A stretch of 64,000 nt of DNA from Acutalibacteraceae bacterium. GTDB taxonomy: Bacteria > Bacillota > Clostridia > Oscillospirales > Acutalibacteraceae. Under the pieces are notes generated by a model. That model did not search any database and was not told the DNA's origin. It saw nothing but the letters and a program-made list of their open reading frames with translations. Every line of letters begins with the position of its first letter. Positions within the stretch are counted from its first letter, which is position 1. Both the position numbers and the translations under genes were made by a program. Positions 50,140 through 59,966 of the stretch are shown here, in pieces. The stretch is taken from assembly GCA_045589015.1 (NCBI GenBank), contig JAZNFG010000053.1:5118-69117 (forward strand). Reading direction: 5' to 3'.

Positions 50140-51252
50140 TCAATATAGATACCATTTCTTTGAAAATTCTTTCCACAGTTCAGTTTTTCTGCGATGCTTG
50201 TCAAGAAAGGAATCTATATCAAAATCATCCTCAAATATCTCATCAGTACCGAGAAGCTTTATTATATCAGACTCAACAGCAAATTCTTTATGAGCTTTTC
50301 TTATTGCATCAAAAATACGCATTCCCGTTTCAAAGGGCTCAAAGGAATTTCTGTCAGTAATATGAAGCTGAATTCCGCGGCAGAACGTGTTTTCGTATTT
50401 TGAAAAGGTCGGAATAAAAGAGCATTCCCTTAAAATAACGCCTTCCTGCTTTCCGACTGCCCTTATAATCATTTCATTGTCAAGCCAGGGTGCGCCTATC
50501 ATTTCAAATGGCTTGGTTGTGCCTCTGCCCTCGCTGATATTTGTATCCTCAAAAATACAGGTTCCGATATAGTAAAATGCCGAATCAACAGTAGGGATAT
50601 TCGGTGAAGGCTGAATAAAGAGCAAGCCCGTATCGTCAAAATACATTTCTCTTTTCCAGTTTTCCATAGGAATCACACTAAGCTCACAGCCGATATTTTC
50701 GGTTTCATTCATCATAAGTGCAAATTCTCCTATGGTTAAACCCGAACGGGTCGGTGTCGGATATCTTCCGACAAAGGAGGAAAACTGCCTGTCAAGAAGG
50801 GTCCCCTCTGCTTTTATGCCGCCTAAGGGATTCGGGCGGTCAAGCACAACAAACCTTATTCCGTGCTCTGCACAGTATTTCATAGTATCAGTCATTGTAT
50901 ACTGATAAGTATAAAAACGCGCACCTACGTCCTGAATATCAAAAATTACGGTATCAAGAGCCGACAGCTTTTCTTCTGTCTCGGAAATATCATCACAGAA
51001 GAGGCTGTAAACGGGAAGTCCGGTTTTCCTGTCGGTATAAAAGCCGATATCCTCTCCCGCCTGTCTGTCACCTCTTATTCCGTGCTCTGGAGCAAAAAGC
51101 GCAACAAGATTACACCTTTCGTTCAGCATATCGACAACCGAGCCGAGGTCACGCAAAACACCCGTGTGGTTAGTAATAAGTCCGCATTTTCCGCTGAAAT
51201 TACAGTCATCCCTCTTTATTATATCTGCACCGCATAATACGTTCATTTTCAT
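50140..51252 (-). CDS. DUF1343-family protein (exo-beta-N-acetylmuramidase NamZ-like)
   Basis: GKCGLITNHTGVLRDLGSVVDMLNERCNLVALFAPEHGIRGDRQAGEDI and VVLDRPNPLGG are hallmark DUF1343/YbbC blocks. Confidence 0.75.
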   Translation of the reverse strand: MKMNVLCGADIIKRDDCNFSGKCGLITNHTGVLRDLGSVVDMLNERCNLVALFAPEHGIRGDRQAGEDIGFYTDRKTGLPVYSLFCDDISETEEKLSALDTVIFDIQDVGARFYTYQYTMTDTMKYCAEHGIRFVVLDRPNPLGGIKAEGTLLDRQFSSFVGRYPTPTRSGLTIGEFALMMNETENIGCELSVIPMENWKREMYFDDTGLLFIQPSPNIPTVDSAFYYIGTCIFEDTNISEGRGTTKPFEMIGAPWLDNEMIIRAVGKQEGVILRECSFIPTFSKYENTFCRGIQLHITDRNSFEPFETGMRIFDAIRKAHKEFAVESDIIKLLGTDEIFEDDFDIDSFLDKHRRKTELWKEFSKKWYLY

Positions 51253-51261
51253 ATTTCACCG

Positions 51262-52308
51262 TTATTGTTCATATTTGCTCCACCCCGAGGAGCGTATTTC
51301 GGTGCCGTCATCCGTCAGCCATAGTGCCTCAGCATCGGAAATAGCTTCTATCAAATCGGAGCCCTCTTTCGCAGAAAGACAAAACAAGGCTGTTGAAAGA
51401 GCATCGGCAAGTCCCGAATCCTTACAAACTACGGAAACAGATAAAAAGCCTTCGGAGGGCATAAGCGTATCGGGATGAATAATGTGATGATAAGCCTTTC
51501 CGTCTACGTAGTAAAATCTCTGATACGAACCGCTTGTAACAAGAGCCTGTCCCGACAAGCTGAGATAAGCGATATAATCTCCGCCCTCGGGGTTTTCGAT
51601 ACCGACAGTCCACGAAGTCCCGTCTGCCCTGCTCCCTATAGTCCGTACGTTTCCGCCTACGTTCAATACGTAACCCGTAATCCCTTTTTCCTCAAGGCTT
51701 TTTGCTATCTGCTCAACGGCATATCCCTTTGCTACAGCACCTACGTCAAGCTTCATTTCAGGATCAGTTAACGTGACCGTGTTGTTTACCTCATCAATAA
51801 CAAGCTTTTCAATATCACAATGCTGTGATGCCTCAATAAGCTTTTCCATCGGCGGAAGAGAAGCCTGCGACGGATCATCCTTTCCGATAGTCCGATAATC
51901 GTGCCATAAGGATAAAACGCTTCCCATTGCAATATTCAGAATACCGTCGGTTTTACGGTACATTTCCTTTGCATAAAGCAGCATATCAACAATTCGGCGG
52001 TCAACGGTAACGGTACGGTGCACACCGTCAACCACTTCGTTTATCGTGCACAGATTCTCCAAATTCTCAAACCGATGATATATTGAGTAAAGTCGGTGAT
52101 ATTCCCTTAGCTGCGACAAAATTTCTTCTGCCACGCTGTCAAAAGCATCCTGCGAATATTCATATCCCGTTATTGTGGTAACGGTATCAAAATAATCCAT
52201 GGAATATTCGGTATATTTATTCTTTTGGGTTGTGTCAGAGCAAGAAACAAGGGAGCTTGCTAAAATACAGACAACAACAGCTATAATAATTATTCTGCTT
52301 CTTTTCAT
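51262..52308 (-). CDS. apbE: FAD:protein FMN transferase (ApbE), lipoprotein
   Basis: Lipobox LVSCSD. DVGAVAKGYAVE, LNVGGNVRT and HHIIHPDTLMP are ApbE landmarks. Confidence 0.8.
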   Translation of the reverse strand: MKRSRIIIIAVVVCILASSLVSCSDTTQKNKYTEYSMDYFDTVTTITGYEYSQDAFDSVAEEILSQLREYHRLYSIYHRFENLENLCTINEVVDGVHRTVTVDRRIVDMLLYAKEMYRKTDGILNIAMGSVLSLWHDYRTIGKDDPSQASLPPMEKLIEASQHCDIEKLVIDEVNNTVTLTDPEMKLDVGAVAKGYAVEQIAKSLEEKGITGYVLNVGGNVRTIGSRADGTSWTVGIENPEGGDYIAYLSLSGQALVTSGSYQRFYYVDGKAYHHIIHPDTLMPSEGFLSVSVVCKDSGLADALSTALFCLSAKEGSDLIEAISDAEALWLTDDGTEIRSSGWSKYEQ

Positions 52309-52310
52309 AC

Positions 52311-52362
52311 ACGTAAAAACAAAAAAGGGGGTTGTAAAAAATGAAGCTTTTTACATCCCCTT
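52311..52362 (-). terminator. Strong hairpin plus T-tract between the repeat lipoprotein gene and apbE
   Basis: On the minus strand, AAGGGGATGTAAAAA-gcttcat-TTTTTACAACCCCCTT is followed by TTTTGTTTTT. The hairpin ends 16 nt, and the T-tract about 5 nt, before the apbE ATG. Confidence 0.6.
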
Positions 52363-52369
52363 ATATTTG

Positions 52370-53377
52370 TCAGATTTTTGATGCAGCCTTAACGAAGCCT
52401 GAAACAATAATCGTACAGCCTGCAGTCTGAAGGTCAGCTACACCCTTGCCGTCTTCAGCTGCAAGACCTGCAATTTTAGAAGCAGTCTTGCCTACGCAAG
52501 CAGCATCAAAAACAGCAGCCTGCTCATTCCATTCCTTTGCTGCACCGCCGTAAGCTACCATACCGTAGTCAGCACCCTGTGATTTCTTGGAAAGAACTTC
52601 CTTGGTTGTATCAAGAGTTGAAACGCCTTCAGTTGTGAAGGTAAACGTTACTTCTACGCAATCGGAAGAAGCAGCAACTACTTTGCCGTCAGCGTCAACA
52701 GCAGCCGCAAAAACGCTTGTTGCAACCTTGCTTGAGCCGTCCTTGTCATCTGTAGCATCAGCAGTTGTAAGCTCTGTAGCGGCAGTAACCTTAAGAGTAT
52801 TCTCAGCAGTAACTGCAGAATCTGCTGCGGAATTGTAAGCCTTCTCAATAGCACCTACAAATTCATTGATCATAATTGTGCAGCCTGCATTGATAACATC
52901 GTCAGTACCCTTGTTGCCTTCTGCAACCAAAGCCTTAACCTCTGTGAGAGTTTTACCTGCTACAAGTGCTTCAAAAGCATCAGCCTGCTCAAACCATTCC
53001 TTTGCTGCACCGCCGTAGGCTACCATATTATAGTCAGCACCGGACTCATACTTGGTCTTGAATTCATCCTGTGCTACAGCCTTTCCGTCAAAGGTAAAGT
53101 TTACGGTACTGCTTGCCGTATCAAGAGCACAGGCAACGATCTTGCCTTCAGCATCAACGGTAACAGCGGCAACGGTAACGTCAATCTTGCCTGAGCCGTC
53201 CTTATCCTCAGTAGCATCAGCAGTTACGGGAGCGGCAACATAAACGCCTGCACCGAATTTAAGTGTGCTGCTTACGGGATTAGTTGTTTCTTCTGTGTTT
53301 GTCGTATTACCGCAGCCTACAAATACCACGGAAACAGCCATAATGAGACATAATGCGATTACCAAAGCTTTTTTCAT
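52370..53377 (-). CDS. Lipoprotein made of two tandem ~145-aa FMN_bind-like repeats with a variant D-x-x-x-A-G-C-T motif
   Basis: Lipobox VFVGCGN. The repeat units end in DDVINAGCTIMINEFVGAIEKA and ADLQTAGCTIIVSGFVKAASKI. Both contain GADY(N/G)MVAYGGAAKEW. Nearly identical 48-nt DNA segments lie at 52529-52576 and 52994-53041. Confidence 0.45.
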   Translation of the reverse strand: MKKALVIALCLIMAVSVVFVGCGNTTNTEETTNPVSSTLKFGAGVYVAAPVTADATEDKDGSGKIDVTVAAVTVDAEGKIVACALDTASSTVNFTFDGKAVAQDEFKTKYESGADYNMVAYGGAAKEWFEQADAFEALVAGKTLTEVKALVAEGNKGTDDVINAGCTIMINEFVGAIEKAYNSAADSAVTAENTLKVTAATELTTADATDDKDGSSKVATSVFAAAVDADGKVVAASSDCVEVTFTFTTEGVSTLDTTKEVLSKKSQGADYGMVAYGGAAKEWNEQAAVFDAACVGKTASKIAGLAAEDGKGVADLQTAGCTIIVSGFVKAASKI

Positions 53378-53412: not shown

Positions 53413-53441
53413 ATACTACTATATATTAATCAAATTGTCAA
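53413..53441 (-). promoter_or_regulatory. Sigma-A-type promoter candidate for the repeat lipoprotein gene
   Basis: On the minus strand: TTGACA (53441-53436), 17 nt, then TAGTAT (53418-53413). Confidence 0.45.
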
Positions 53442-53493: not shown

Positions 53494-53997
53494 TCACAGC
53501 AGCCTCTGAGGAATACGCTTGATAAGAAAAGCACCGCAAAGTCCGATAAATATGCCTGCAACAGTTCCGCTTACTGCAAGAACAGTAAGATAATATCCCA
53601 GCTGTGACGTTTCCAGAAGAAAAGCCGCCATAATTATCTGGCCTGCATTATGAGAAACACCGCCTGCTACACTTACGCCTACACAGGAAAAGCAATTAAG
53701 CTTCTTTAATACTATCATTACGGCTAAGCTCAATACTCCGCCTGCAAGACTGTACATCAGCGCCATCATATTGCCGAACAGCATACTTACGAGAAATATT
53801 CTTACAATAGATACCGTTCCTGCAAAAAACGGACCCTTTCTGTAAAGCAGAAAAACAATAATAATGTTGGGAAGTCCCATTTTTATTCCGGGTAACGCCG
53901 TAAATAAAGGCGGTATCAGCACTTCTATATAAGCGAATATAAGTGCAAGTGCCACACATATACCGCCGAAAGCAACAGTTTTTGTTTTCTTGTTCAA
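53494..53997 (-). CDS. Gx transporter family membrane protein (formerly 'heptaprenyl diphosphate synthase component I' family)
   Basis: LPGIKMGLPNIIIVF, SLAGGVLSLAVM and GVSVAGGVSHNAGQI are the family's conserved blocks. TTG start 6 nt after AGGAGG. Confidence 0.65.
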   Translation of the reverse strand: MNKKTKTVAFGGICVALALIFAYIEVLIPPLFTALPGIKMGLPNIIIVFLLYRKGPFFAGTVSIVRIFLVSMLFGNMMALMYSLAGGVLSLAVMIVLKKLNCFSCVGVSVAGGVSHNAGQIIMAAFLLETSQLGYYLTVLAVSGTVAGIFIGLCGAFLIKRIPQRLL

Positions 53998-54007
53998 AGC
54001 TGACCTC

Positions 54008-54421
54008 CTATATTATAACGTCCGGTCCGTCCGTTTTAACTACTGAAGTAACGGTAACCACAACCCGATTGGGAAGACACACTATACTTTCACCGTCACG
54101 GAAAATACTCCTATGCGAAACACATATTCCGTCAGGACAGGATGCATTTTCAATATAAGCCTTTCCCTCTTTTATTACAAGACGGTTATGCTTCATATTA
54201 TCATCACCCGAATAAATATCCACTGTTATGTCCTCGGCAAGGGAATATTCTCCGTAAATCTCGCCGTCAACGGTAACGGTTACCTTTACACCCGGACTGC
54301 GGAAAAAATTAAGATAAATAAGCCCGATAACCGCCGCAAGAATTACGGCGGCTATCAGAATTATATCATTTCTGAATCTGCTTTTACGGTTTTTTAAGCT
54401 ATCCTTATTATTCATAATCAT
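54008..54421 (-). CDS. NusG domain II-containing protein (DUF1312)
   Basis: N-terminal TM segment, then CPDGICVSHRSIFRDGESIVCLPNRVVVTV, the typical CPD..C......G..I.CLPN signature. ATGA overlap with the rnfB stop. Confidence 0.65.
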   Translation of the reverse strand: MIMNNKDSLKNRKSRFRNDIILIAAVILAAVIGLIYLNFFRSPGVKVTVTVDGEIYGEYSLAEDITVDIYSGDDNMKHNRLVIKEGKAYIENASCPDGICVSHRSIFRDGESIVCLPNRVVVTVTSVVKTDGPDVII

Positions 54422-55251
54422 TCAAGTAGATCCAAGCTGTTAACGTCATCTGGAATATCGGGGAAGAATGCCGTTTTAAGACAGCCCGTAGGACATTCCT
54501 TTACACAAGCTTCACAATGAACACATTTTTCATAATCAATAACCGCAAGATTATCAATTACCTTAATTGCACCGTGCGGACAGGTTCTTTCACACTTTTT
54601 GCAACCGATACAAGCATTCTTGCAGGCCTTTTTTGCATCGACACCCTTCTGCTTGTTACTACACATAACAACAGTAGCCGTTTCCTGCGGAATCATATTG
54701 ATTATCTTCTTGGGACAGGTATTTGCACAAAGTCCGCAGCCGAGACAACGAGCGGTATTTATATGAGCAATACCGTCTTTGATGCAAATGGCCTTTGCGG
54801 GACAAGCTGCGGCGCAGTCTCCGAGACCGAGGCAACCGAAACGGCAGGAATTTGTGCCGCCGTATAGCATTGAAGCGGCATAACAGGTTTTTATGCCCTC
54901 ATATTCGGATGTGTTAAAGGTTGCATCGCAATTACCGTTACAGGCAACGAAAGCAACAACGTCCTTGAAGGGCTCTGCCTCCACTCCGAGAATACCGCCG
55001 ATTTCATCAGCTACACTCTGCGCACCCGGTATACAGAGATTAGGAGCAACACCGCCCTCTGCAAGTGCGGCGGCATAGTCATCACATCCCTTATATCCAC
55101 AGGCACCGCAGTTAATGCCGGGAAGGCAGGCACGAATCTCACCCTTTAAGGGATTTTCGGGGACTGAGAAAAAATGAGAGAATACCGTAATGAGAATACC
55201 TGCAACAAGGGCAACAGCCAACATTACGAGAAATGCAATTAAAATATCCAT
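54418..55251 (-). CDS. rnfB: Rnf complex subunit B (polyferredoxin)
   Basis: N-terminal TM helix, LPGINCGACGYKGCDDYAAALAEG, and several CxxCxxCxxxCP ferredoxin motifs. Confidence 0.85.
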   Translation of the reverse strand: MDILIAFLVMLAVALVAGILITVFSHFFSVPENPLKGEIRACLPGINCGACGYKGCDDYAAALAEGGVAPNLCIPGAQSVADEIGGILGVEAEPFKDVVAFVACNGNCDATFNTSEYEGIKTCYAASMLYGGTNSCRFGCLGLGDCAAACPAKAICIKDGIAHINTARCLGCGLCANTCPKKIINMIPQETATVVMCSNKQKGVDAKKACKNACIGCKKCERTCPHGAIKVIDNLAVIDYEKCVHCEACVKECPTGCLKTAFFPDIPDDVNSLDLLE

Positions 55252-55266
55252 AATGCTCCCCCCTTA

Positions 55267-55866
55267 TTATGCAAAAATACTTTCAACAATGCCGCCGAAG
55301 CCCATAAATGCAAGGGAAATAAACGAAGCGGCAATGAGGGTAACGGCAAGACCGCGGAAGGGAGCGGGCACCTTGGAATCATCAATTTTTGAACGGATAC
55401 CCGAGAAAAGAACCATAGCAAGAAGGAAGCCGAGACCGCATCCGAGAGAGCTTACCATAGCTTCTAAAAAGCTGTAACCGTCAATTATGTTGTTAATCGT
55501 AACACCGAGAACGGCACAGTTTGTTGTTATAAGAGGAAGATAAACACCGAGTCCCTTATAAAGGGCAGGGGAAAACTTCTTGAGGATAAGCTCAAGAATC
55601 TGAACAAGAGTTGCAATAATGAGAATAAATGCAATATTCTGAAGATATCCGAGACCGAGCGTATCAAGCACAAATTTCTGAATTGGCCAGGTTGCAGCAG
55701 TTGCAAGAAGCATAACGAAGGTTACGGCAACGCCCATACCTACAGCCTGATCAAATTTTTTGGAAACACCGAGAAAAGGACAAATACCTAAAAATCTGCT
55801 GAGAACGTAGTTATCAACCAATACGGATGAAAGAAGTATTATTATTAAAATCTTGAAGCTTTCCAT
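55267..55866 (-). CDS. rnfA: Rnf complex subunit A
   Basis: The VDNYVLSRFLGICPFLGVS signature. The ATG at 55866 overlaps the rnfE TGA by 1 nt. The track start at 55908 would overlap the rnfE coding sequence. Confidence 0.85.
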   Translation of the reverse strand: MESFKILIIILLSSVLVDNYVLSRFLGICPFLGVSKKFDQAVGMGVAVTFVMLLATAATWPIQKFVLDTLGLGYLQNIAFILIIATLVQILELILKKFSPALYKGLGVYLPLITTNCAVLGVTINNIIDGYSFLEAMVSSLGCGLGFLLAMVLFSGIRSKIDDSKVPAPFRGLAVTLIAASFISLAFMGFGGIVESIFA

Positions 55867-56555
55867 CAGTTTTCTTCTCCCTTCTCTGAACAATTTCCGC
55901 CCTGACAATTAACCGCATTGGGACAGCCTTCACAGGAAAACGATTTTTTAAGAGGTGCCCTTCCGTGGGTAACGGCATAAATCAGAGCAATAAGAAGTCC
56001 GTAAACAAGAAGTCCGCCGGGAGCCTTCGTGAAGAATTCGATTTTATAATTCTGCAGGAAAGGAATCTCGATTCCGAAGAAAGAGCCTGCACCGAATACC
56101 TCACGAATCGTTGACATCATAGTAAGGGCAAGAGTAAAACCAAGTCCCATACCTATACCGTCCATAGCAGAAGCAACAACGGGATTCTTGTTAGCAAACA
56201 TTTCGGCACGTCCGAGGATTATACAGTTAACCGTTATAAGGTCAAGATAAACACCGAGCGTTTCATACAGCTCCGGCAGATATGCCTGAACTATCATTTT
56301 AACTATTGTTACAAAGCCTGCGATAATAACGATATAACAGGGAATACGCATTGACTCGGGAATTTTCTTTCTGAGAAGAGAAATAAATACGTTTGAGCAG
56401 ATAAGAACAGCCATAGCGGCAAGTCCCATACCGACAGCACCCTTAACGGTGGTAGTGGTTGCAAGAGTGGGACAGGTGCCGAGAATGAGCACCAGAGTAG
56501 GATTTTCCTTCAATATACCGTTAATAAGTATAGACATTGAGGATTTTTCTTTCAT
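55866..56555 (-). CDS. rnfE: Rnf complex subunit E, with a Cys-rich C-terminal tail
   Basis: NPTLVLILGTCPTLATT signature. An unusual terminal SFSCEGCPNAVNCQGGNCSEKGEEN. Confidence 0.85.
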   Translation of the reverse strand: MKEKSSMSILINGILKENPTLVLILGTCPTLATTTTVKGAVGMGLAAMAVLICSNVFISLLRKKIPESMRIPCYIVIIAGFVTIVKMIVQAYLPELYETLGVYLDLITVNCIILGRAEMFANKNPVVASAMDGIGMGLGFTLALTMMSTIREVFGAGSFFGIEIPFLQNYKIEFFTKAPGGLLVYGLLIALIYAVTHGRAPLKKSFSCEGCPNAVNCQGGNCSEKGEEN

Positions 56556-57733
56556 TATCGGGCACCTCCGTTCATTGTTCTTATTGCATTAAATGCACGT
56601 TCTATAGCCTGTGTATAACCGTTTGTCGTTAAGGTTGCACCACTGATAGCATCGATTTCCTTATAGTTTTCTTCTGTCTTGCCTACGAACTGACCGTAGA
56701 AGCCTTCATCGGCGCAAGCATCGCCGAGTCCGTCCGTTTCCGCCTGGGAAACTGTAATACAGTCAATAATTCTGAAGTCGGGAGTAACTGAAACGCGGAC
56801 AATAATATACTCGTTGGAGGCGGGATGATATTCGTCGCCGCCCTTGATGCCGTAGCCTGCACCCTTCGTTTCAAGAACAAAGTTACCCGAGGCTGTCTTC
56901 TTTGCTGAAACAACCGTCTTTTCAAGCTCAGCATAAGCAGAAATATCAATATCCTCAAGCTCGCTTCCCTTGATTGCCGTGACCGCGTCAGCGTAAAAGG
57001 CTTCATCAGCTACACCGTCGGTCATAACCGTACCGTCCGCATTCACGCCTGTAAAATCTTCACCGGCAACAAAAACGTAGCCTGAATTATTTGTTGCTTT
57101 ATATACGGCATCAACACCCTCAACAAGCTCAACCATAAAGAGCTTCTCAAAAGACTTCTCACCTGCGGGGAAAGCCGCATCAAGATTATCGGCAAGAATT
57201 TCCTCCTCAGTACGGATATCTACCGAGCCGCCTGCGAGGATAACAGCCGTATTAAGAGCATCCTTAACGGCATTCTTATATGCCTGAGTGGTTTTTGTTG
57301 CACCGGAAATAATATCAACCGCATCAACACCTGCCGCATCCTTACCGGTAAAGCTCTCACCGTAAGCTTTTTCTTTACCTAACGTTTCGTTTGATGAAAG
57401 GCAGACGGCACCTGTTACGGCTCCGTCGGAGCTTACACCGCACATTATAACGAAATCTGTGCCGTAGCCTGCAGTAGTAAGCTTTATAACGTAACCGAGA
57501 CCGGTAGTTTCCCTGTGTACCTCTGTTACCGTTGAAGGAAGAGTAAGCCCGGTAATATCTGCAGTTTCAAAGCCTTTACCGTCGGGCATTACCTTAAGAA
57601 GCGCGGCATTTGCGGCAGCATTCTGATTTTCGGCAATAACGGGCGCGGTAATATAGTTCGTTGCCGCAAGCAGAACCGTTATAACCGAGCAGATGCATAT
57701 AAAGACAAAAAGATTCTTAACGTATGTTTTCAT
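56555..57733 (-). CDS. rnfG: Rnf complex subunit G, double length with two FMN_bind domains
   Basis: N-terminal TM segment. Two flavinylation motifs are present: DIISGATKTT and DAISGATLTT. AGGAGGGG RBS before the ATG at 57733. Confidence 0.8.
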   Translation of the reverse strand: MKTYVKNLFVFICICSVITVLLAATNYITAPVIAENQNAAANAALLKVMPDGKGFETADITGLTLPSTVTEVHRETTGLGYVIKLTTAGYGTDFVIMCGVSSDGAVTGAVCLSSNETLGKEKAYGESFTGKDAAGVDAVDIISGATKTTQAYKNAVKDALNTAVILAGGSVDIRTEEEILADNLDAAFPAGEKSFEKLFMVELVEGVDAVYKATNNSGYVFVAGEDFTGVNADGTVMTDGVADEAFYADAVTAIKGSELEDIDISAYAELEKTVVSAKKTASGNFVLETKGAGYGIKGGDEYHPASNEYIIVRVSVTPDFRIIDCITVSQAETDGLGDACADEGFYGQFVGKTEENYKEIDAISGATLTTNGYTQAIERAFNAIRTMNGGAR

Positions 57734-58650
57734 CACTTATCCCCTCCTGTTGCAAATACCTTTCTCCGTGTCCACTTGCAAATGTAGGGATTAAGAATAT
57801 TCATAAACAGAATTGCAAAGGAAACGCCTTCGGGATATGTTCCGAAATATCTGATAAGACAGGTAAGAAGACCGGCACCGAGACCGAAAATAACCTTACC
57901 CGCAGAAGTATAGGGAGATGTCGTATAATCGGTAGCCATAAAGATTGCACCGATAAATACACCGCCTGACATAAGAAGCGAAAGAGCACTTACTGCATCA
58001 AAGCCTTCCATAAATAACGAGAAAAGGAAAACGGTAGCTATGAATACAACGGGGATATGCCAGGAAATAACACGTCTTATGAGAAGATAGATACCGCCGA
58101 GAAGAAGTGCCGCTACACAGGTTTCTCCGATAGCACCGCCGTGTCTTCCGAGGAATAAATCAAGAAGCTCGGGCATTTCCTCTGCTGAAAGAGGAGTCGC
58201 AGAAGAAACTGAATCCACGGGGAATGAGGGAACTGCCATTGAGCCGAAGGCAACAAGCATAAATACTCGTGCAGTAATTGCGGGGTTTACGAGATTTGCA
58301 CCGATTCCGCCGAAAAGACATTTTACTACAACAATTGCAAACAATGAGCCGACGGCACACTGCCACAACGGAATATCAACGGGAAGATTAAGAGCAAGAA
58401 GAAGTCCGGTTACTGCGGCAGACAAATCTCCGACCGTCTGCTCCTTCTTTATCATAAGATTAAAAACAGCTTCAAAGCCAACCGAACAGATTACGCATAC
58501 TGCAATCACAAGCAGAGCGCGCCAGCCGAAAACAGCCGTTCCTGCAATAATTGCGGGCACTAATGCAATAAGAACATCAGCCATAATGCCGGTTGTGGAT
58601 TTTCCGCTGTGAATATGAGGAGAAATCATTAATTTTGTGAGAGAATTCAT
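57733..58650 (-). CDS. rnfD: Rnf complex subunit D
   Basis: MISPHIHSGKST, the flavinylation-site-like VSSATPLS, and polytopic membrane topology. Confidence 0.85.
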   Translation of the reverse strand: MNSLTKLMISPHIHSGKSTTGIMADVLIALVPAIIAGTAVFGWRALLVIAVCVICSVGFEAVFNLMIKKEQTVGDLSAAVTGLLLALNLPVDIPLWQCAVGSLFAIVVVKCLFGGIGANLVNPAITARVFMLVAFGSMAVPSFPVDSVSSATPLSAEEMPELLDLFLGRHGGAIGETCVAALLLGGIYLLIRRVISWHIPVVFIATVFLFSLFMEGFDAVSALSLLMSGGVFIGAIFMATDYTTSPYTSAGKVIFGLGAGLLTCLIRYFGTYPEGVSFAILFMNILNPYICKWTRRKVFATGGDK

Positions 58651-59966
58651 TATTTCTTTTCCTCCTTTACTGCTTTATCCGCCAATAATTTTTTTGAAAG
58701 CTTGTTAATCTGAACAAGAGGGCGGTTTGCCGGGCATACGAAGCTGCAGCAGCCGCACTCCATACACGACTGAACGGAAAGTGCTTTAAGCTCATCCGTA
58801 TCCTCCTTGGAATAAGCCTCGGCAATATTTACGGGCGCAAGATTGAAGGGACAGGTATTTACACAGGCACCGCAACGTATACAAGCCGTGGTTTTAGGAA
58901 GCTTTGCTTCCTTTTCAGACAAAGCGAGAACGGCATTTGTGTTCTTCAGCACGGGAGAAGACGCATCCGGAACGGTAATACCCATCATAGGACCGCCGTA
59001 AATGATTTTTGCAGGGTCCTCTTTAAGTCCGCCGCAAAAGTCAAACAGATCCTTAATTGCAGTACCGATAGGTGCGATTACATTCCGGGGATTATTAACG
59101 GCGGCACCGTCAACGCTGACAAGCTTTTCAACAAGAGGTATACCCGTTTTGAGATATGCGCCAAGCTGTGCTACCGTTGTGCTGTTGAGCACAATACAGC
59201 CAACGTCAATGGGTAGCTTATTAACAGCAATCCTTCTGCCCGTTGTATGGTAAACCATAACCTTTTCTCCGCCCTGCGGATATTTATCGGGAAGAATATT
59301 GACCTTTACGTCAAAGGCACTTATTGAAGCGGCAAGCGTCTGCATTGCACAAGCAACGTCCTTGTTGCTCTTTTCAACACCGATAATAACCTTTTTTACA
59401 CCGAGAAATTCGTTAAGCGCATTAAGAGCGGTTTTCATATCCTCGCCGCGAGTCAGCATATTAACCGAGTCGCTTGTAACGTAAGGCTCACATTCAGCAC
59501 CGTTTACGATAAGATATTCTATCTTTTCAACGGGAACGTCTAATTTTACGTGCGTCGGGAAGCCGGCACCGCCCAGACCTACGATACCGCTTTTTCTTAC
59601 GGCATCTAAAAAATCGGCTCTGCCGTTTATAACAGGAGCGCAAACGGACTCATCAACCGCATTTTCTCCGTCCGACTCAATTACAACGGCTGTAGTTGTT
59701 CTGCCGTTGCTCAAAAGGAACTCGGAAAGCTTTACGACCTTTCCCGATATGCTCGAATAGATATCAGATGAAATTCTGCCGTCTGCTTCACCTATCTTGG
59801 TACCGATTTTAACCATATCCCCTGCTTTTACGACGGGAACTGCGGGTTTGCCGATATGCATCGACATAGGAATTGTTACCGTCCTGACGTTATCAATACG
59901 TGAAACGGGGCAGTTTTTTGTGCCTTTTCTGTGTGGAGTATGTATACCTGAAAGATAAGAACCCAT
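58650..59966 (-). CDS. rnfC: Rnf complex subunit C
   Basis: GLGGAGFPTHVK (NADH/FMN site) and two 4Fe-4S motifs, CIRCGACVNTCP and CMECGCCSFVCP. Confidence 0.85.
   Translation of the reverse strand: MGSYLSGIHTPHRKGTKNCPVSRIDNVRTVTIPMSMHIGKPAVPVVKAGDMVKIGTKIGEADGRISSDIYSSISGKVVKLSEFLLSNGRTTTAVVIESDGENAVDESVCAPVINGRADFLDAVRKSGIVGLGGAGFPTHVKLDVPVEKIEYLIVNGAECEPYVTSDSVNMLTRGEDMKTALNALNEFLGVKKVIIGVEKSNKDVACAMQTLAASISAFDVKVNILPDKYPQGGEKVMVYHTTGRRIAVNKLPIDVGCIVLNSTTVAQLGAYLKTGIPLVEKLVSVDGAAVNNPRNVIAPIGTAIKDLFDFCGGLKEDPAKIIYGGPMMGITVPDASSPVLKNTNAVLALSEKEAKLPKTTACIRCGACVNTCPFNLAPVNIAEAYSKEDTDELKALSVQSCMECGCCSFVCPANRPLVQINKLSKKLLADKAVKEEKK

Follow-up and report, generated by a model that had tools for sequence, protein, structure and literature searches.

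The closest described counterpart of the protein treated here is PplA of Listeria monocytogenes, a membrane-anchored lipoprotein with two threonine sites that carry flavin mononucleotide (FMN) by way of the adjacent ApbE-type enzyme FmnB, and which is encoded together with genes of the eetA/eetB type (PMC9973259, PMC8906456). In a stretch of 64,000 nucleotides from an Acutalibacteraceae bacterium (contig JAZNFG010000053.1, the whole stretch being called the window below), the minus-strand gene at 52370..53377 encodes a membrane-anchored lipoprotein of 335 aa that has two predicted acceptor sites and likewise lies beside apbE and eetA/eetB-type genes. We find it rather likely that this lipoprotein is covalently flavinylated at T167 and T322 by the neighbouring ApbE, and the comparison with known systems suggests that it is best read as a two-flavin lipoprotein for electron transfer that resembles PplA and has a relaxed acceptor motif.

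The likeness to PplA has its limits. The sites of PplA, T143 and T265, are 122 residues apart (PMC8906456), whereas T167 and T322 are 155 apart, and from this wider spacing it follows that the domain of the lipoprotein is larger; the domain type of PplA is in this comparison inferred from the spacing of T143 and T265 (PMC8906456) and not from its sequence. PplA has the canonical motif, while the lipoprotein reads AGCT and has no Pfam FMN_bind match. The partner of PplA is Ndh2 with demethylmenaquinone, whereas the partner system in the window is Rnf. Genes for Ndh2, DmkA and DmkB are absent around the lipoprotein gene in the window, where rnf is found instead, and they are present at the locus of one distant family member (L089) that is described below.

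In the mechanism that we propose, Sec would export the lipoprotein, which would receive its lipid at C22 and fold outside the membrane. Flavin adenine dinucleotide (FAD) would be exported by the EetB-type energy-coupling factor (ECF) subunit encoded upstream, and the adjacent ApbE, itself a lipoprotein, would transfer the FMN moiety from FAD to Thr167 and Thr322 via phosphoester bonds. The product would be an electron carrier with two flavins, like PplA in Listeria, and this carrier would probably take electrons from a membrane donor and deliver them to acceptors, shuttles or reductases outside the cell. The donor would most plausibly be Rnf, whose RnfG has an extra flavin domain, but donor, acceptor and direction of flow are pure inference.

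The lipoprotein gene is a real feature and was correctly read in the original prediction, made from the DNA alone. All features of the window given here are on the minus strand. The signal peptide (residues 1-22, 53312..53377) begins with MKK and a hydrophobic stretch and ends in the lipobox VFVG-C22; it is of the Sec type, lacks a twin-arginine motif, and across 36 homologues its G21 and C22 do not vary. The tandem duplication that had been proposed is confirmed: in a self-alignment, repeat 1 (residues ~38-185, 52823..53266) and repeat 2 (residues ~193-335, 52373..52801) are 50% identical over 130 aa (E 3e-37), and the duplication is visible even in the DNA, where the segments 52529-52576 and 52994-53041, each of 48 nt, show 4 differences and are part of a 93-nt repeat with 81% identity. 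Each repeat has AGCT near its end, followed by a short helix, as had also been claimed. Motif 1, D-V-I-N-A-G-C-T, contains A164-G165-C166-T167 (52877..52888), and motif 2, D-L-Q-T-A-G-C-T, contains A319-G320-C321-T322 (52412..52423); the two fall in the same column of the family alignment, and T167 and T322 are the predicted FMN acceptors. Annotation is of no help with this protein. Pfam and NCBIfam scans gave no meaningful match, none of the more than 2883 homologue clusters at 90% identity near this lipoprotein alone carries a name, and every named homologue is a 'hypothetical protein'.

The relationship to FMN_bind domains emerges from more sensitive comparisons. The only solved structure with significant sequence similarity to the lipoprotein is 2KZX, an apo structure, determined by nuclear magnetic resonance, of an uncharacterised protein from Clostridium thermocellum. 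It is the sole match in a PDB sequence search (E 2.8e-6 with the protein as query, E 1e-7 with the repeat profile), and DVINAGCTIMINEF of the lipoprotein is aligned to DAI-SGATIKVKKF of 2KZX, which places NAGCT on SGAT. The matched fragment of 2KZX is itself above the gathering threshold of PF04205 (25.8 vs 22 bits), and 2KZX is listed as a structure of the PF04205 (FMN_bind) family (PMC4348036). It has the signature Y-x-M...G-G-A-x-x-E-W-x-E-Q-A and a helix after the motif in common with the family of the lipoprotein, but it differs in being a single domain (131 aa) and in having the canonical DAISGAT, and it aligns to the family by its C-terminal half only. A homologue search with the 2KZX fragment returned just 5 short proteins; in 2KZX-like single-domain proteins (P0300-P0303) the motif is D-A-I-S-G-V-S, with Val before a Ser acceptor, and thus departs from the SGAT rule.

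A second line of evidence is a profile-profile comparison. When 318 family domains were aligned by hhalign to RnfG-type FMN_bind domains, after 2KZX-like bridging sequences and one family domain had been removed from the FMN_bind target set, homology was detected with 90% probability (E 1.7e-6), in a register that puts AgCT on SGAT and GKT on GK. A third is that in four proteins (P0212, P0196, P0227 and P0269) two family repeats stand behind an FMN_bind domain that Pfam recognises. Among ten distant members tested, one (P0266) has a sub-threshold PF04205 match inside a family repeat (E 0.029). T167 and T322 are in register with the flavinylated Thr of SGAT in the alignments to both 2KZX and RnfG. 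The 2KZX match, the RnfG profile match and the four fusions together place the lipoprotein with FMN_bind domains despite the missing Pfam match, and on these alignments we regard its repeats as divergent domains of the FMN_bind superfamily, homologous in the SGAT register. The comparisons support what the original prediction had suspected, FMN_bind-like repeats with AGCT in the place of SGAT, although a structural search, treated below, recovered no FMN_bind structure. Like the lipoprotein, the FMN_bind domains of RnfG and NqrC are extracytoplasmic, carry their Thr just before a C-terminal helix and have a G-K motif ~20 residues upstream of the acceptor. They differ in their canonical S-G-A-T and in being membrane-anchored subunits of a complex and not lipoproteins; identity to the family is ~16% in the aligned region, and compared with RnfG the family is longer between the sheet and the first helix.

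This extra length brings to mind the FMN-bind2 subtype of Huang, Meheust, Barquera & Light (mSystems 2024, PMC11334425). FMN-bind2 domains are ~160 aa long (~120 aa for FMN-bind1), occur in even copies as a pseudo-symmetric pair and were found by BLAST, with NTW96865.1 and WP_312031774.1 (6x) as exemplars. The repeats of the lipoprotein are likewise ~145-160 aa long, of even copy number and confidently packed as two domains, and the absence of an InterPro entry for an FMN-bind2 exemplar in Table S1 of the same paper matches the lack of a Pfam match for the lipoprotein. In the AlphaFold2 (AF2) model of the whole lipoprotein (predicted local distance difference test, pLDDT, 88.8; predicted template modelling score, pTM, 0.84) the two domains appear to pack as one pseudo-symmetric unit. 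The domain is probably of the FMN-bind2 subtype, as judged by the published description and not by the exemplar sequences. An AGCT- or ASVT-type motif is not mentioned in the accessible part of PMC11334425, and cluster look-ups and a search with the six-repeat family member P0122 gave no named Hujiaoplasma or Erysipelotrichaceae entry.

The family is large and its acceptor is very well conserved. The repeat profile retrieved 1538 representative clusters at 50% identity, 1129 of them at E <= 1e-10 and 411 at E <= 1e-30. Among the best 150 of these representatives, two repeats are found in 133, four in 11 and six in 2, so that the number is even in 146 and odd in four, and 109 have a lipobox-like N-terminus. 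Over the 318 aligned family domains the acceptor column is 94% Thr and 5% Ser, and together with D47, K72, Y79, M81, E90, W91, Q94 and G104 it makes up the nine best-conserved columns, which plausibly form a cofactor pocket. The positions before it vary: directly ahead of the acceptor stands Cys in 74% of the domains, with Val (17%), Ala (5%) or Thr (2%) in others; Gly is found at position -2 in 65%, elsewhere Ser, Thr or others, and Ala at position -3 in 78%, elsewhere Ser or Thr. The motif most often reads AGCT (179/334 domains), beside ASVT, SSVT, SGCT, ASCT and a few SGAT, and the site of the family as a whole reads [A/S/T]-[G/S/x]-[C/V/A/T]-[T/S]. The expected conservation of the AGCT segment therefore holds in part, for the Thr/Ser is near-invariant and AGCT is invariant among close homologues, but across the wider family the Cys varies. 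The alignments suggest that AGCT relaxes the pattern D-x-x-[S/T]-G-A-[S/T]. In a model ApbE substrate, flavinylation requires the Thr but is only halved by changes from G to A and from A to V (PMC12052999), in agreement with the tolerance seen in the family; the Flavin-tag paper PMC9400968 contains no motif-scanning data. The RnfD encoded in the window has the site D-S-V-S-S-A-T, with Ser instead of Gly at -2, and the local ApbE presumably accepts more than one form of the motif already.

Linkage to apbE speaks for the same reading. In the window, apbE (51262..52308; Pfam PF02424, E 3.5e-70) lies directly downstream of the lipoprotein gene and encodes an FAD:protein FMN transferase that has its own lipobox, LVSC, as had been noticed before. 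Upstream lie an eetB-like gene for an ECF-S-type FAD exporter subunit (53494..53997; PF07456, Pfam E 2.2e-36) and a gene for a membrane protein with a NusG_II domain (54008..54421; Pfam PF07009, E 1.8e-27), which is probably eetA, the partner of eetB, PF07009 being what we take to be EetA. They are preceded by the rnf operon, so that the order on the minus strand is rnfC, rnfD, rnfG, rnfE, rnfA, rnfB, the NusG_II gene, the PF07456 gene, the lipoprotein gene and apbE. PF07456 is EetB, which is required for FAD export and for flavinylation of PplA in Listeria, and eetB co-localises with eetA in 3,328 genomes, with apbE in 2,169 and with rnf in 572 genomes of the class Clostridia (PMC9973259). 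Since PF07456 is EetB and co-localises with both apbE and rnf, the neighbourhood is a known flavin-export-plus-flavinylation module attached to Rnf, and the lipoprotein is an unannotated member of it.

We surveyed 82 loci from related Clostridia in which the lipoprotein is 53-84% identical, and apbE was found within 400 nt after the lipoprotein gene in 78 of them. Two of the exceptions (L062 and L069) are contig ends, and in a third, a Lachnospiraceae locus (L082, 9160-10045), two small genes stand between the lipoprotein gene and apbE; the fourth is considered below. In two further loci (L003 and L071) the contig ends inside apbE. The lipoprotein-apbE pair is upstream of rnf instead of downstream in five loci (L001, L017, L028, L032 and L038), and it thus moves as a unit.

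Distant family members follow the same pattern, for apbE adjoins in seven out of eight informative cases despite differing motifs and repeat numbers. It is adjacent in P0132 (AQCS x4), in the four-repeat P0160, and in P0137 (four repeats) and P0241 (two repeats) where no rnf is nearby. P0141, with a mixture of SGAT, SSVT and SSAT in four repeats, lies in the order eetA-eetB-X-apbE-rnfCDG, and in P0127 (ASVT x4) a RibU-type ECF S-component is encoded between the family gene and apbE. The seventh is P0253 (SSVT x2) at L089, where apbE adjoins in a locus resembling those for flavin-based extracellular electron transfer (FLEET): a Ndh2-like flavoprotein, a polyprenyl synthase, a UbiA prenyltransferase, eetB, the family lipoprotein, apbE and rnf are encoded in this order, and the family protein is in the place of PplA in a FLEET-type locus, the genes before rnf being those that make up the FLEET locus of Listeria. 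The linkage recurs outside the clostridial clade and without rnf (L084, L087 and L088). The idea of the original prediction that the lipoprotein is a substrate of ApbE has comparative support from the SGAT register, the 99% conservation of the acceptor and the adjacency of apbE in close and distant members alike, covalent FMN being predicted.

Some of these loci are of interest in themselves. At L089 (1472-13104) a FLEET-type set is directly joined to rnfCDGEA(B), so that two membrane electron-input systems are found around one surface flavoprotein. In L085 (10032-13260) and L090 (9046-12265) the genes after a four-repeat family gene and apbE are rnfC, rnfD, one for a short FMN_bind protein of 174-177 aa and one for a protein of 143-145 aa without annotation; rnfE, rnfA and rnfB do not come after these, and this cluster may be a reduced Rnf-like module. 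At L084 (3455-3958) a RibU-type riboflavin S-component (PF07155) stands where the window has eetB.

The single-domain AF2 model of repeat 1 (pLDDT 89.3) is a long beta-hairpin sheet followed by helices, and in the models AGCT is in a loop directly before the C-terminal helix. In FMN_bind domains the flavinylation motif is at the C-terminal end, and two helices after a beta-sheet make up the minimal scaffold (PMC4348036); the order of elements in the model (sheet, helices, motif loop, terminal helix) fits this scaffold. When the two-domain and single-domain models were compared with the PDB by Foldseek, the best matches of both were IscU/ISCU2 (E ~0.01-0.05, TM 0.33-0.43, with TM the template modelling score, probability up to 0.96, root mean square deviation 8-13 A), which are weak, and the fold comparison thus did not give what the original prediction had expected. 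Neither 2KZX, which the sequence search had found, nor 3O6U, 3DCZ or NqrC was in the top 50 for either model. The ranking of IscU may reflect a sheet-plus-helices topology common to FMN_bind-like and IscU folds, or noise.

Several observations speak against flavinylation of the lipoprotein. No FMN_bind structure was among the top 50 Foldseek matches of the two-domain and single-domain models, and PF04205 does not match the lipoprotein even at E <= 1. Two positions of its motifs are off the consensus (-3 is Ala and -1 is Cys), and the Asp is at -7 instead of -6 as in canonical D-x-x-[S/T]-G-A-[S/T]. Experimental flavinylation of the FMN-bind2 subtype is not reported in the accessible part of PMC11334425. 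Two loci break the linkage, since L078 has no apbE within 7.5 kb downstream and the distant member P0202 (AGTT) has none within 6 kb, and within the clade the adjacency alone is weak evidence, because apbE beside rnf is to be expected when RnfD and RnfG need it. Finally, a terminator-like hairpin with a U-run (52318..52371, dG -17.8 kcal/mol, z -3.46) lies between the lipoprotein gene and apbE, and a hairpin with a T-run is at the same place in 70/78 related loci although the sequences differ, so that the two genes may not always share one transcript. Transcription probably terminates after the lipoprotein gene, apbE being expressed by read-through or from a separate start; the hairpin may set a ratio of high lipoprotein to low ApbE expression.

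Flavinylation is nevertheless favoured over its rivals because the acceptor is 99% conserved and because the apbE linkage recurs outside the clade. It is unlikely, but deserves to be considered, that the lipoprotein handles flavin without a covalent bond, by binding the FAD or FMN exported by EetB and handing it to ApbE or Rnf as a flavin chaperone or buffer, with the Thr unmodified. Its gene does stand exactly between that of the FAD-exporter subunit (PF07456; PMC9973259) and apbE, but many members keep apbE without eetB nearby, and at the FLEET-like locus a family gene occupies the slot of PplA. The motif is off the ApbE consensus, yet across the 318 domains the hydroxyl residue that aligns exactly with the flavinylated Thr is kept while its neighbours vary, which a role in binding alone would leave unexplained, and family repeats are fused behind canonical flavinylated domains. 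A promoter-like site of its own and the hairpin suggest separate, possibly high expression of the lipoprotein gene. The promoter-like site is TTGACA-17-TAGTAT (53413..53441) within the 116-nt gap 5' of the gene, with 10/12 matches in a consensus scan, and is a consensus match only.

We give a still lower probability to a degenerate, flavin-free descendant of FMN_bind that has another surface role, structural or ligand-binding, and in which the adjacency of apbE is left over from synteny with rnf. Nine near-invariant polar or aromatic columns across 1538 clusters, with the acceptor among them, point instead to a conserved cofactor site, against which the lack of a Pfam match and the failure of Foldseek to recover an FMN_bind structure can be set. 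Synteny would be expected among the 80 genome loci, all from one clostridial clade, but apbE is also linked beyond that clade without rnf, and the lipoprotein-apbE pair is kept upon relocation.

The motif Cys was called invariant in the two repeats by the original prediction, which raised the possibility of a thiol link or redox-active site. This possibility is not supported at the level of the family, for Val, Ala or Thr replaces the Cys in 26% of the 318 domains, and no Cys column co-varies with it. An essential thiol role is thus unsupported, and the Cys seems to be one of several acceptable small hydrophobic residues, with no catalytic thiol at the level of the family. Other Cys columns are poorly conserved (column 44 ~47%, column 102 ~30%). 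A disulfide from the motif Cys to the column-44 Cys was considered and rejected, as the latter is equally or more frequent where the motif Cys is absent. We hold it very improbable that [A/S]-G-C-T sites are a distinct recognition code of ApbE with a functional Cys as a flavin-proximal thiol, which could be a flavin-thiol redox couple, a persulfide or metal ligand, or a second tether. If it were true, the Cys would bring a surface chemistry that canonical SGAT domains lack, such as the reduction of extracellular disulfides, polysulfide or metals. Although the Cys appears dispensable family-wide, a lineage-specific role is conceivable in the 74% that retain it, all close homologues included.

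An IscU-like domain that binds a metal or Fe-S cluster with the motif Cys and C83, C240 and C294 would account for the best Foldseek matches of both models (E ~0.01, probability up to 0.96) and for the five non-lipobox Cys residues that are kept in close homologues, but it is hardly credible given a non-significant resemblance (TM <= 0.43), Cys columns that are 30-74% conserved without covariation, the lack of any IscU sequence match in PDB or Pfam searches, and a Sec-type lipoprotein signal without twin-arginine motif, which argues against export of a pre-assembled cluster, and an identity as Fe-S scaffold was rejected.

What is new here is a putative ApbE-associated two-flavin lipoprotein with a relaxed acceptor motif that appears to escape surveys based on Pfam or on the motif. 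Where ApbE-dependent electron transfer outside the cytosol has been surveyed, substrates were sought with PF04205 and an [S/T]GA[S/T]-like motif (PMC8238504); the family fails both of these filters and is missed, even though it is large (1538 clusters), almost always beside apbE and common in Clostridia of the gut and rumen. Should its members be flavinylated, the accepted ApbE motif would widen to about [A/S/T]-x-[C/V/A/T]-[T/S], which could explain some of the remaining 'orphan' apbE genes and would offer new tolerated sequences for Flavin-tag engineering, and a PplA-like outlet would be added to fermenters that contain Rnf. The finding extends known biology and introduces no new principle.

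The rnfCDGEAB operon of the window (54418..59966, minus strand) was recognised from its open reading frames and Pfam/NCBIfam matches. It begins with rnfC (58650-59966) and rnfD (57733-58650; site DSVSSAT) and ends with rnfB (54418-55251). Its rnfG (56555-57736) encodes 393 aa with two FMN_bind domains, and the canonical motifs DIISGAT and DAISGAT are both present as had been stated. This long (doubled) RnfG is kept in nearly all 80 related loci, where tblastn matches span ~1170 nt, and the multi-flavinylated class of RnfG, to which it belongs, has been proposed as a side path for electrons to extracytosolic acceptors (Meheust et al. 2021, PMC8238504). Just 3' of apbE, at 50140-51252 on the minus strand, there is a gene for a NamZ-type exo-beta-N-acetylmuramidase (Pfam E 3e-81), which recurs downstream in 1 related locus only (L008) and is probably unrelated.

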